This document shows, piece by piece, positions 7,245-16,674 of a DNA stretch of 64,000 nucleotides. The DNA comes from Methylomonas sp. Lineage in GTDB: Bacteria > Pseudomonadota > Gammaproteobacteria > Methylococcales > Methylomonadaceae. Made by a program: the position numbers and the translations under genes. Below the pieces are notes generated by a model. The model made no database searches and was not told the origin of the DNA. It was given only the letters and a program-made list of their open reading frames with translations. The DNA lies in NCBI GenBank assembly GCA_002929135.1, contig PESC01000050.1, positions 1,805-65,804 on the forward strand, given 5' to 3'. The number at the start of each line of letters is the position of its first letter. The stretch's first letter is position 1.

Positions 7245-7682
7245 ATGACACCATCCATTTGTTGGAAATACGCGATAGCGCTGGGCTTGATGATGCTATC
7301 GACAACTGCGTTCGCGATCACTCCGGAGGAGGATGAGCGCGAGAAAAAATGTATCAAACCCAAGTTCCGCGACTTCTTTCCCGCCGATAAAGCGGAAGTG
7401 GCGCCTGCATCGCCCATGAGTTTTCATGTGTCTCACCATGCCAATCCGGCCACCATCGCGGCCGAAGCCAAGGGGCAGAAAATCAAACTGAACGTACACG
7501 ACCGGAAAAATTTTTACGAAGTTTCCGGTACGTTGCCGCCTGAATTGCAGGGTACGTTTGCCCGCATCAGCCTGCATGCCAGGGCGGCAGAAGGTGATTG
7601 CATGGGGAGTGATGGCTGGTTGATCAAAATCAAAAGCACGTCCGATGTGGCTGCGCCAGCGGTGACTCAGCCAACAAATTGA
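7245..7682 (+). CDS. Exported hypothetical protein, possible Ig-like fold
   Basis: Strong SD (agaggagg), signal peptide ending AFA, two Cys. Confidence 0.8.
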   Translation: MTPSICWKYAIALGLMMLSTTAFAITPEEDEREKKCIKPKFRDFFPADKAEVAPASPMSFHVSHHANPATIAAEAKGQKIKLNVHDRKNFYEVSGTLPPELQGTFARISLHARAAEGDCMGSDGWLIKIKSTSDVAAPAVTQPTN

Positions 7683-13481: not shown

Positions 13482-14693
13482 ATGGCGGCATTCGAATATC
13501 AAGCCATCGACGGTCGGGGGCGCACGGTTAAAGGCACACTGGAGAGCGACAGCGCCAAATCGGCGCGTCAGCAATTGAAGGTGACCGGGCTGACCTTGCT
13601 CGCCATTCAGGAAATCCACAAACAGGAAAACCGGCAGCGGGCGTCGCTGTGGACGCAACGCATCGGGATGCGGGCGCTGACCCATATCACCCGGCAGTTG
13701 GCCGCTTTGCTGAAGTCAGGGCTGGCAATCGATGAGGCACTGGCCATCGTGGCCCGGCAGTCGGAATCGGCTAAGGCCAGGCGTATCGTCACGGCGATCA
13801 GAACCCGCGTCGTCGAAGGCCAGAGTCTGGCGCAGGCTTGTCAGGGCTTTCCCAGCAGCTTTCCGCCCATGTATCGTGCCACGGTCGAGGCTGGGGAGTC
13901 GTCGGGCAAGCTGGATCAGGTGCTGGAAAAACTTGCGGACTATCTCAGCGACAAGGGCCAACTGCATCGCAAGCTGCAAATGGCGATGATTTATCCGGTG
14001 CTGCTGACGGGGGTGTCGCTGTTGGTGGTCATCGGTTTGCTGACCTATGTCGTGCCGGAAATCACCGGGGTATTCGACAAGATGGGCCAGCAATTGCCCG
14101 CAATTACCCGTGGCCTGATCGCGAGCAGCGATTTTTTCAAGGATTACGGTTTGATGCTGGTGGTTTTGCTTATTGTGCTGACGATGGCTTTCAAATGGCT
14201 GATGCGCCGTGACGAGCCGCGTATGCGTTTTCACCGCTGGCTGCTGCGCTGGCCACTGACGGCGAAGTTTTCGCGTGGTCTCAATACCGCACGGTTCACC
14301 CGCACGCTGGCGATTCTGACCAACAGCGGCGTCGAATTGTTGACGGCTTTGCGCATCGCCAGTCAGGTGCTGGGTAACGATGCCATGCGCAAGGCCGTCG
14401 AAACCGCCGCCTTGCGGGTTCGTGAAGGCCAGAGCCTGAACCGGGCACTGGAAAGCAGCCGTTTTTTTCCGCCCGTGACCATACATCTGATTGCCAGCGG
14501 CGAGGCCAGTGGTCAGTTGCCGCGCATGCTGGAAAGCGCCGCCGACGACCAGGAGCGTGACATTCAGGCGCTGACCGAGTTGACGATGGGCTTGTTCGAA
14601 CCGGCCCTGATTCTGACCATGGGCTTGCTGGTTTTGGTTATCGTGCTGGCCATACTGCTGCCGATTTTCGAGATGAACCAGTTGATACGCTGA
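13482..14693 (+). CDS. gspF: Type II secretion inner-membrane platform protein
   Basis: MAAFEYQA, GESSGKLDQVL, AMIYP, GEASGQL, FEPALI..PIFEMNQL. Confidence 0.95.
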   Translation: MAAFEYQAIDGRGRTVKGTLESDSAKSARQQLKVTGLTLLAIQEIHKQENRQRASLWTQRIGMRALTHITRQLAALLKSGLAIDEALAIVARQSESAKARRIVTAIRTRVVEGQSLAQACQGFPSSFPPMYRATVEAGESSGKLDQVLEKLADYLSDKGQLHRKLQMAMIYPVLLTGVSLLVVIGLLTYVVPEITGVFDKMGQQLPAITRGLIASSDFFKDYGLMLVVLLIVLTMAFKWLMRRDEPRMRFHRWLLRWPLTAKFSRGLNTARFTRTLAILTNSGVELLTALRIASQVLGNDAMRKAVETAALRVREGQSLNRALESSRFFPPVTIHLIASGEASGQLPRMLESAADDQERDIQALTELTMGLFEPALILTMGLLVLVIVLAILLPIFEMNQLIR

Positions 14694-14739: not shown

Positions 14740-14781
14740 TTGATGTAAATCAAAAAAAGCTTCGTGCGCTGTCACGACAAT
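14740..14781 (+). promoter_or_regulatory. FNR/Anr box and class II promoter
   Basis: Perfect TTGAT-GTAA-ATCAA at 14740-14753; GACAAT at 14776-14781 puts the box at -41.5. Confidence 0.8.
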
Positions 14782-14818
14782 GCGATCTCCATAACTAAAA
14801 ACAATTTGGAGGTATGCA

Positions 14819-15214
14819 ATGGCTTTAATTACCTGGACTGCCGAGCAATACGGCACCGATGTCGGGTTTGCCGATCAAGAGCATCAAACACTGTTTGGCC
14901 TGCTGAACAAACTGTACGACGAGGCCACCGGCGGCGCGGCGCGTTCGACTATCGGCGGGTCACTTGATGCGCTGATTGCCTATGTTGTGGATCATTTTGC
15001 CCACGAAGAACGAGAGATGTTGGCAAAAGGATTCGCCGGTTACGATGTTCACAAGGCAGAGCACGATGCGCTGGTTGGCATTTGCGCCGATTTGCAGAAA
15101 AAATTTCATGCCGGGGAAGCCGACGTGACTGATGATGTCGGTCAGATGGTGAAAGGCTGGCTGGATAGTCACATACCCAAGTTCGACAAAGGCTATTCCG
15201 CAGCGCTGAAGTAA
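14819..15214 (+). CDS. Single-domain bacteriohemerythrin (McHr-like)
   Basis: 131 aa; di-iron ligand motifs DQEH, HFAHE, HKAEH, HIPKFD; MALITWTAE start. Confidence 0.93.
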   Translation: MALITWTAEQYGTDVGFADQEHQTLFGLLNKLYDEATGGAARSTIGGSLDALIAYVVDHFAHEEREMLAKGFAGYDVHKAEHDALVGICADLQKKFHAGEADVTDDVGQMVKGWLDSHIPKFDKGYSAALK

Positions 15215-15234
15215 GTTTGATATGGAATGACAAG

Positions 15235-15266
15235 GCCTGCGGGCGTCATTGCTCGCGGGCTTTTTT
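15235..15266 (+). terminator. Intrinsic terminator after hemerythrin
   Basis: 10-bp GC stem plus T6. Confidence 0.8.
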
Positions 15267-15450
15267 ATGGCTGGATTTTACGGTCGGGAAAAGCTCTTGT
15301 GGTTTGGCCAGGATTGATAGGTTAGAATTACTAGGTTAATTGCCACACTTGGTTGGTAAGCAAAAGGACATGTTGGTTGCTTTATTGCAGGCCACAAACA
15401 CAAAAACTAAAGCGCATACAAGTTTACAAACACAATCGGGAGGCTGCTCC

Positions 15451-16674
15451 GTGAAGAAAACAAAGCAATTGCTCGCGTGTTCGGTTCTACTGGCCTCTGG
15501 CCTAGAATCTGCCCACGCGGACTACACACTCAACCTGGTCAAAGGGGTGACACAGCTTAGCCACAGGCTGTATGACTTGCACATGCTCATCCTGTGGGTT
15601 TGTGTGGCCATTGGTGTCGGCGTGTTTGGCACGATGTTTTACTCAATCTATCACCACCGCAAATCCAAAGGCCATCAGGCAGCACAATTTCACGAAAGTA
15701 CCACGGTCGAGATTATCTGGACCATCATTCCCACACTGATTCTGATCGGCATGGCCGTGCCCGCAACCTACGCGGTCATGGATATCGACAAGGTCGAAGA
15801 GTCCGAAATGTCCATCAAGGTTACCGGTAAACAGTGGTATTGGGATTACGAATACCTCGATAACGGCATTCATTTCGAAAGCCATCTTGATGAAGCCAGT
15901 GAAAAGACGCATCGGGTAAGCACCATGGATCCGCGTTCAGTGCCCAATTACCTGTTGAACGTCGATAAGCCGCTGGTCATTCCGACCAAAACCAAAATTC
16001 GTTTTCTGTTCACATCGTCGGACGTCATCCACTCATGGTGGGTGCCTGACTTGGGCTGGAAGAAAGACGCCAACCCTGGTTTCGTCAACGAAGCCTGGAC
16101 CTATGTCGAAAAACCCGGCACCTATCGAGGTCAATGTACCGAACTCTGCGGTCGCGACCATGGCTTCATGCCTGTCGTCGTCATTGCCATGGAACAGGAA
16201 CAATACGATGCCTGGGTTAAAACCACGCTCGAAAAACAAAGCCAAGGGCCTGATTTGAGCAAGCAAAGCCGCGCCTCATTGCTGGCGAAAGGCGAATCGG
16301 TCTATCTGAAAAACTGCGTTGCATGTCATCAGATTGATGGTAAAGGCATCAGCGGCTGGTATCCGGCGCTGCGCGATAGTGGCAAAGTCATCGGCAATGT
16401 CGATCAACTGATAGGCTTTGTCCAGGCTGGTACCAGCAAAATGCCCGCATTCAAAAAATTGCCTGCCAATGAGCTTGCGGAACTGGTTACCTACATAAGG
16501 AATTCAGCGGACATCGGCAACAATGTCAACGATGAGTTTCAGCCCTGCCAGGCACTGACGCTTGATGATTTGGATGAGTTGTTCCCGGATAACGATGATG
16601 CCGGTCAGCAGTGCAAAGAACACGGCGAGGTCAAACCGACCGCCAAAACCGCCAGTGCAGCGGCAGGGTCTTGA
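15451..16674 (+). CDS. coxB: Cytochrome c oxidase subunit II fused to cytochrome c
   Basis: QWYWDYEY, HSWWVP, CTELCGRDHGFM (CuA), CVACH heme c motif; GTG start at 15451 after gggagg. Confidence 0.95.
   Translation: MKKTKQLLACSVLLASGLESAHADYTLNLVKGVTQLSHRLYDLHMLILWVCVAIGVGVFGTMFYSIYHHRKSKGHQAAQFHESTTVEIIWTIIPTLILIGMAVPATYAVMDIDKVEESEMSIKVTGKQWYWDYEYLDNGIHFESHLDEASEKTHRVSTMDPRSVPNYLLNVDKPLVIPTKTKIRFLFTSSDVIHSWWVPDLGWKKDANPGFVNEAWTYVEKPGTYRGQCTELCGRDHGFMPVVVIAMEQEQYDAWVKTTLEKQSQGPDLSKQSRASLLAKGESVYLKNCVACHQIDGKGISGWYPALRDSGKVIGNVDQLIGFVQAGTSKMPAFKKLPANELAELVTYIRNSADIGNNVNDEFQPCQALTLDDLDELFPDNDDAGQQCKEHGEVKPTAKTASAAAGS

Follow-up and report, generated by a model that had tools for sequence, protein, structure and literature searches.

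Introduction

In class II FNR promoters of Escherichia coli the dyad TTGAT-N4-ATCAA lies over the -35 position and the -35 hexamer is weak or absent, and vgb, encoding Vitreoscilla haemoglobin, is an oxygen-carrier gene that FNR activates at low oxygen. The closest described relative of the system considered here is mhr of Pseudomonas aeruginosa (PA1673 / PA14_42860), in which 81 bp separate an Anr box, TTGATCGGCGTCAA, from the start codon and the promoter is 64-fold Anr-dependent, as shown by a reporter, an anr deletion and mutations of the box (Clay et al., 10.1101/802934). Its product is a single-domain O2-binding hemerythrin with an H-HxxxE-HxxxH-HxxxxD site, which is strongly induced at low oxygen and has been proposed to aid membrane-bound O2 consumers. 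Here we compare these systems with bhr, a bacteriohemerythrin gene of Methylomonas sp., and with the FNR-type dyad that precedes it, in a stretch of 64,000 nucleotides (contig PESC01000050.1, positions 1,805 to 65,804 of the forward strand, assembly GCA_002929135.1) that we call the window.

In gammaproteobacterial methanotrophs bhr products are among the most hypoxia-induced and most abundant proteins, and bhr is often invoked to account for the activity of 'aerobic' methane consumers in oxygen-poor lakes, wetlands and sediments. In M. denitrificans FJG1, whether the medium contains nitrate or ammonium, hypoxia raises bhr-00 by more than 2 log2 units, and its product makes up over 1% of the proteome (PMC12607906). 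O2 limitation raises bhr 9.9- to 391-fold in M. buryatense 5GB1C (PMC5652258), and a hemerythrin mutant of Methylomonas LW13 does not grow in a methane-oxygen counter-gradient (PMC11072679). The studies consulted here on bhr-00 and on McHr (the Methylococcus capsulatus Bath bacteriohemerythrin) deal with induction, abundance, structure and gene neighbourhood and leave the regulator and promoter unnamed; FNR and promoter are mentioned 0 times in the bhr-00 paper (PMC12607906), and neither is mentioned in PMC5652258 or PMC11072679. Our literature search, whose coverage excluded subscription journals, returned no report pairing FNR or a promoter with a methanotroph bhr.

Structure of the bhr locus

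The sequence of the locus and its comparison with relatives suggest, with good though not full confidence, that bhr is a one-gene unit under a class II FNR-activated promoter and that its product is of the McHr type. FNR binding, the start site and oxygen dependence in the host organism are predicted from sequence. The features of the locus, all on the + strand, are as follows.

14740..14753, + strand: FNR/ANR-type dyad TTGAT-GTAA-ATCAA (TTGATGTAAATCAA), centre 14746.5, read from the sequence
14776..14781, + strand: -10 hexamer GACAAT, exactly 22 nt past the box end
14786..14790, + strand: predicted transcription start zone, placed solely from the position of the -10 hexamer
14808..14812, + strand: Shine-Dalgarno sequence GGAGG, 6 nt before the ATG (14819), read from the sequence
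14819..15214, + strand: bhr, a 131-aa single-domain bacteriohemerythrin (PF01814, matches to McHr structures)
15227..15268, + strand: intrinsic terminator, a G+C-rich hairpin with a six-U run at 15261-15266
15451..16674, + strand: coxB, oxidase subunit II with a C-terminal cytochrome c domain (Pfam COX2, COX2_TM and cytochrome c domain)
13482..14693, + strand: gspF, final gene of the upstream type II secretion operon and an unrelated neighbour (Pfam T2SSF)
14787..14791, + strand: CTCCA just past the -10 hexamer, conserved and complementary to the ribosome-binding site, a possible anti-Shine-Dalgarno element

The sequence-only reading had described the box, the -10 hexamer, the Shine-Dalgarno sequence, the 131-aa hemerythrin with its ligands, the terminator and coxB, and each of these is present where it had been placed. 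Provided that GACAAT occupies -12 to -7, the predicted position of the box centre is -41.5. The -35 position (14753-14759) reads AAAAAAG, so that there is no -35 hexamer, and a sigma-70 scan found no complete promoter upstream of bhr. The box begins beyond 46 nt of sequence that separate it from the gspF stop (14693), and its centre lies 72.5 nt from the bhr ATG, compared with the 81 bp between box and start codon in P. aeruginosa mhr. Downstream, the terminator folds at -25.5 kcal/mol (z -3.5; none of 200 shuffles was equally stable), and an A run upstream of its hairpin indicates that it could act in both directions.

Like the class II FNR promoters of E. coli, the bhr promoter has a perfect dyad over the -35 position and a -10 hexamer that follows the box at 21-22 nt; unlike them, its start is predicted, its host is an obligate aerobe-type methanotroph, and the apparent FNR regulon of that host is very small. 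Like vgb, bhr would be an oxygen-carrier gene under FNR. The design itself is already known from Pseudomonas, Anr-activated mhr being the closest case, with the difference that regulation has been proven for mhr and is predicted for Methylomonas bhr.

On this basis the following sequence of events can be postulated. At low oxygen, the single FNR of the cell would keep its [4Fe-4S] cluster, dimerise and bind TTGAT-N4-ATCAA; bound at a site centred some 41.5 bp before the start, it would substitute for the missing -35 contact of the sigma-70 polymerase. Transcription would then run from near 14788 to the terminator at 15227-15268, giving an mRNA of about 480 nt that encodes Bhr alone, and the accumulating protein would bind O2 at its di-iron site for membrane O2 consumers, namely particulate methane monooxygenase (pMMO) and possibly oxidases. 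The destination of Bhr-bound O2 is adopted here from the literature, where it is debated.

Bhr and its host genome

The bhr product matches the Pfam hemerythrin family PF01814 (E 2.9e-14), and its residues 1-130 align end-to-end with the McHr structures 4XPW/4XPX (E 1.3e-47). With the ligand numbering that we take to be that of McHr, the 4XPW/4XPX alignment shows all seven di-iron ligands to be kept (H22, H59, E63, H78, H82, H118 and D123), and L115 is the equivalent of the tunnel-gating Leu114 of McHr. Bhr thus resembles McHr (4XPX) in family, ligands and gating residue, and it shares the H-HxxxE-HxxxH-HxxxxD site and single-domain form of P. aeruginosa Mhr, which differs from the McHr type in having a C-terminal extension. 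Orthologues within Methylomonas are 82-90% identical. Judged by similarity and gene neighbourhood, bhr is the orthologue of the McHr gene and of bhr-00 of M. denitrificans FJG1; it has the same bhr-then-cox gene order as the bhr-00 locus and differs from it in its upstream neighbour, which is gspF here and bio genes there.

The host genome comprises 2.57 Mb in 63 contigs and is 96% complete; it is small, most relatives having 4-5.7 Mb. It encodes pmoA, and its terminal oxidases are one aa3/caa3-type enzyme and one cytochrome bd. The coxBA-ctaG-coxC genes encode its sole haem-copper oxidase, and cbb3 oxidases, the proposed partners of P. aeruginosa Mhr, are absent. There are only two hemerythrin-domain genes in this genome, compared with ten in M. 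denitrificans; the second (G000:C48:53-1801, locus L005), at a contig edge, encodes a 582-aa protein with an N-terminal hemerythrin domain and probably belongs to the sensor-type 'bhr-66' class of PMC12607906.

Conservation of the box

Among Methylomonas species genomes with an orthologue of bhr, 19 of 20 carry a perfect box, located 69.5-73.5 nt before the ATG. In 18 distinct Methylomonas sequences all ten half-site positions are invariant (2.0 bits), compared with 0.86 bits for the central N4, 0.73 for the upstream flank and 0.45 for the spacer to the -10 hexamer. Invariant half-sites between drifting flanks are a clear phylogenetic footprint as read in these alignments. Beyond the genus, 80 named Methylococcales loci include 37 with a perfect box and eight with a one-mismatch box at the same position, and loci from other families add three perfect and two one-mismatch boxes.

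The spacing is also conserved. Of 43 distinct promoters across Methylococcales, 32 have 21 nt and eight have 22 nt between the box end and the -10 hexamer, of which GACAAT, CATAAT and CAAAAT are variants, and the distance from the -10 hexamer to the ATG varies from 25 to 44 nt. Because the distance between activator site and -10 hexamer is rigid and the -35 hexamer is missing, we regard this as the signature of class II activation.

No GspF homologue adjoins bhr on the same strand in the 80 named loci. In M. subterranea (L037:3251-3937) the genes upstream of bhr have bioH-, bioC- and bioD-type domains, and the box starts 8 nt past the stop of the bioD-type gene. Since the upstream neighbour is gspF here and bio genes elsewhere, there is a rearrangement breakpoint immediately upstream of the box, the promoter having stayed with bhr.

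FNR as the candidate regulator

Only two proteins of the Crp/Fnr type scored above the Pfam cutoff in the host genome (Crp-type helix-turn-helix model). One is FNR, encoded at G000:C9:59532-60236 (HTH_Crp_2, E 2.6e-19); it has the N-terminal motif VSCSHCSLDSLC, which is C-X2-C-X5-C, a fourth cysteine in TMMFCILP, and the recognition helix GLALETVSRLLKKF, with LETVSRLL (E--SR, the type that reads TTGAT); together these are the hallmarks of FNR/ANR proteins. The other, on contig C31, has the CRP-type recognition helix SREMAGRVL, which we presume to read TGTGA and not TTGAT. FNR is therefore, by elimination, the sole candidate for the bhr dyad, the only other family member being CRP-type. The CX2CX5C motif is kept in every FNR-type homologue with an available N-terminus, and E--SR in all but one. 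The fnr gene lies 2 nt downstream of a class 1 fructose-1,6-bisphosphatase-like gene on the same strand (G000:C9:59532-61264; assigned by reading the sequence).

To relate the box to the presence of FNR, the bhr upstream regions and the FNR complement of 74 further genomes from 29 other genera were searched. Among genomes with the box, 27 had FNR and one lacked it; among those without the box, FNR was present in 23 and absent from 23. The twelve box-bearing genera had FNR in every sampled genome, and none of six genera devoid of FNR had a genuine box. In a separate sample of named genomes, FNR was found in 9 of 10 genomes with the box and in 10 of 20 without it. The lone genome with a box and no FNR, from genus g36, has TTGACT 17 nt before a CATACT -10 hexamer, followed by GCGGT, and on these sequence features it probably belongs to the second promoter type discussed below. 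As far as these genomes indicate, FNR is necessary but not sufficient for the box; because of their shared ancestry, the genomes counted do not represent independent events.

The dyad also exceeds chance expectation. TTGAT-N4-ATCAA was seen twice in the window against 0.09 expected from shuffles, and the genome holds nine copies where its base composition predicts about 1.1. Intergenic DNA was delimited by an in-house gene caller (2,388 genes, 89.5% coding). The other eight perfect copies all lie inside well-scoring coding regions (pheT, pqqB, bioA and others) and were rejected as sites, being attributed to chance; with these eight in coding regions, the bhr box is alone in the genome in being both perfect and intergenic.

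Several observations weigh against control of bhr by FNR. The predicted start zone (14786..14790) consists of pyrimidines throughout, which is unusual. A wider FNR regulon was not seen: 24 of 188 genomic sites with at most one mismatch were intergenic, close to the intergenic share of the genome (about 10.5%), and the genes downstream of these intergenic sites included no classical FNR targets. The box was not found before cydA or before fnr, nor was one found upstream of the fructose-1,6-bisphosphatase-like gene, so that autoregulation is not indicated. Because no regulon is visible in the genome, the case rests on the bhr locus and its relatives. Shared ancestry inflates the association of box and FNR among the 74 genomes (one-sided Fisher p = 1.4e-5 by genome), and at the level of genera p is only 0.026. 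Finally, conservation of the box across Methylococcales, a point raised in the sequence-only reading, is limited to part of the order: in about half of the sampled genera a different promoter precedes bhr in place of the box, and many of these genera still encode FNR. Because so many box-less genera keep FNR, FNR is not a universal route to bhr control.

Set against these points, the proposal that the box is the direct cis-element for hypoxic induction is strongly supported on comparative grounds, namely by the dyad, its spacing, the missing -35 hexamer, the presence of FNR, the co-occurrence of FNR and box, and the published hypoxic induction of the Methylomonas orthologue bhr-00. The mechanism is of a well-known kind, and would therefore come as a moderate surprise to the specialist. 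The conserved FNR promoter nevertheless supplies a testable hypothesis for how methanotrophs switch on their oxygen carrier, and the bhr promoter could serve as a ready-made O2-responsive promoter in methanotroph engineering.

A second bhr promoter type

Box-less genera have a different arrangement in common, in which a consensus -35, TTGACn, is followed after 17 nt by CATAAT or CATACT as the -10 hexamer, and then, 3-8 nt downstream, by a conserved (T)GCGGT(W). This arrangement was seen in upstream regions L147-L150, L158-L165, L172-L189, L193-L196 and L202-L205, and the lineages bearing it include Methylobacter, Methylovulum, Methylomicrobium and Methylicorpusculum; a further set of closed genomes, about 5 Mb in size, is, at a guess, probably Methylotuvimicrobium. 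Among 127 distinct upstream regions, 57 had the FNR box only, 54 the second design only, 11 neither and five both, and of the last at least L084 and L099 are sequences of the g36 type. In g36 the TTGACT of the second type overlaps an apparent decayed FNR box.

These patterns point to promoter turnover at a single orthologous gene, and a second regulator may stand behind the second design. It is conceivable, though we hold it only tentatively, that the two near-exclusive designs represent a type F, confined to genomes with FNR, and a type S, in genomes where FNR is lacking or unused for bhr, that GCGGT is the operator of a second O2-responsive regulator, and that bhr is perhaps the main reason for which the streamlined genome studied here retains FNR. 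Because many genera have exchanged the promoter, the oxygen response of bhr would be wired differently in, for example, Methylobacter, and such differences matter when bhr transcripts serve as a field marker of oxygen stress.

Relation to the neighbouring oxidase

The sequence-only reading had further proposed that the location of bhr may tie O2 carriage to the adjoining oxidase, and had suggested that hemerythrin-cox synteny be checked. The adjacency is real and family-wide: coxB follows bhr on the same strand, about 240-650 nt away, in 44 of the 71 loci with enough sequence, across many genera, and the neighbourhood of bio genes, bhr-00 and cox/cta has already been published (PMC12607906). 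In the window the gap between bhr and coxB is 236 nt; coxB starts with GTG behind GGGAGG, has its own ribosome-binding site and a signal peptide, and opens a separate coxBA-ctaG-coxC unit. CoxB is 60-85% identical to its counterparts in other Methylomonas.

It is possible, although we consider it doubtful, that the adjacency is functional, with the aa3/caa3-type oxidase receiving O2 from Bhr and the gene order reflecting that partnership. The frequency of the arrangement speaks for this idea, as does the fact that the adjoining oxidase is the only haem-copper oxidase of the genome. Overexpression of Bhr in Methylotuvimicrobium alcaliphilum, in the account given of it in PMC12607906, aided respiration and not methane oxidation (Nariya and Kalyuzhnaya 2020), and mhr of P. 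aeruginosa is epistatic to the cbb3 oxidases (10.1101/802934). Other observations point the other way. The two genes are separated by a strong terminator, which is conserved: a hairpin and T run lie behind bhr at 70 of the 79 orthologous loci, the stem sequence varying from locus to locus. In M. denitrificans under hypoxia cox mRNA falls while bhr rises (PMC12607906). Box and synteny are also separable, the box occurring without cox at seven loci and cox without the box at 11; of the five loci from other families, four (L028-L031) keep the box with no cox within 1.5 kb. The gene order may simply have been inherited within one family. In sum, the terminator between the genes and their opposite published expression argue against an operon of bhr and cox, and a tie between O2 carriage and the oxidase finds no support here beyond gene order.

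Other regulators and other roles for the dyad

Because TTGAT-N4-ATCAA is a motif common to several Crp/Fnr subfamilies, the dyad could instead be bound by another regulator of this family, such as an NO-sensing Dnr/NnrR protein, a FixK type or a CRP-like protein, in which case the signal would be nitric oxide (NO), nitrate or cyclic AMP. Larger Methylomonas genomes do hold extra FNR-like paralogues, including one in genome G041 that is 30% identical. The genome studied here, however, has only two family members, of which the second has a CRP-type helix, and hypoxia induces bhr-00 whether cells are grown with nitrate or with ammonium, which argues against a nitrate or NO signal (PMC12607906). 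We consider control by such a regulator improbable.

Still less credible is that the palindrome is kept for a reason other than activation, as a repressor site, a remnant of an upstream terminator or a neutral hitch-hiker, with bhr driven by a promoter that we failed to recognise: the lack of an evident terminator between gspF and the box would permit read-through from gsp, but the dyad is A+T-rich and conserved regardless of whether the upstream gene is gspF or bioD-type, the fixed 21-22 nt to the -10 hexamer and the absent -35 hexamer fit activation, and lineages without FNR have exchanged the box for a promoter with a consensus -35.

Minor features

The CTCC at 14787-14791 is retained in most box-type bhr promoters, and the four core pairs of a CTCC/GGAG pairing with the ribosome-binding site hold in 85-95% of cells. 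A few lineages alter both sides together (TTCC/GGAA, CACCTC/GAGGTG). A 5'-terminal anti-Shine-Dalgarno hairpin is nevertheless given here as a side observation only, as its covariation was no better than that of shuffles and the hairpin in the window reaches only -6.2 kcal/mol (z -0.26). A minus-strand terminator-like hairpin with a T run at 14762-14777, in the spacer between box and -10 hexamer, was likewise dismissed as chance, being unconserved in a spacer of 0.45 bits; there is no minus-strand gene able to use it.

The second perfect box in the window, TTGATCAAAATCAA at 7620-7633, falls within the final 15% of a 145-aa open reading frame (ORF; 7245-7682) with no Pfam match, 195 nt upstream of an inositol-monophosphatase-family gene and with a hairpin between, and is probably a chance occurrence. 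Elsewhere in the genome, the best one-mismatch intergenic FNR-like sites are G000:C4:19979 (TTGACGTGTATCAA), 79.5 nt upstream of a 120-aa lipoprotein-like ORF of no Pfam family, G000:C26:16736 (TTGATATACGTCAA), 94.5 nt upstream of a 67-aa membrane ORF, also of no Pfam family, and G000:C8:53700 (TTGCTAAAAATCAA), 183.5 nt upstream of an NqrA-like gene assigned by reading the sequence.

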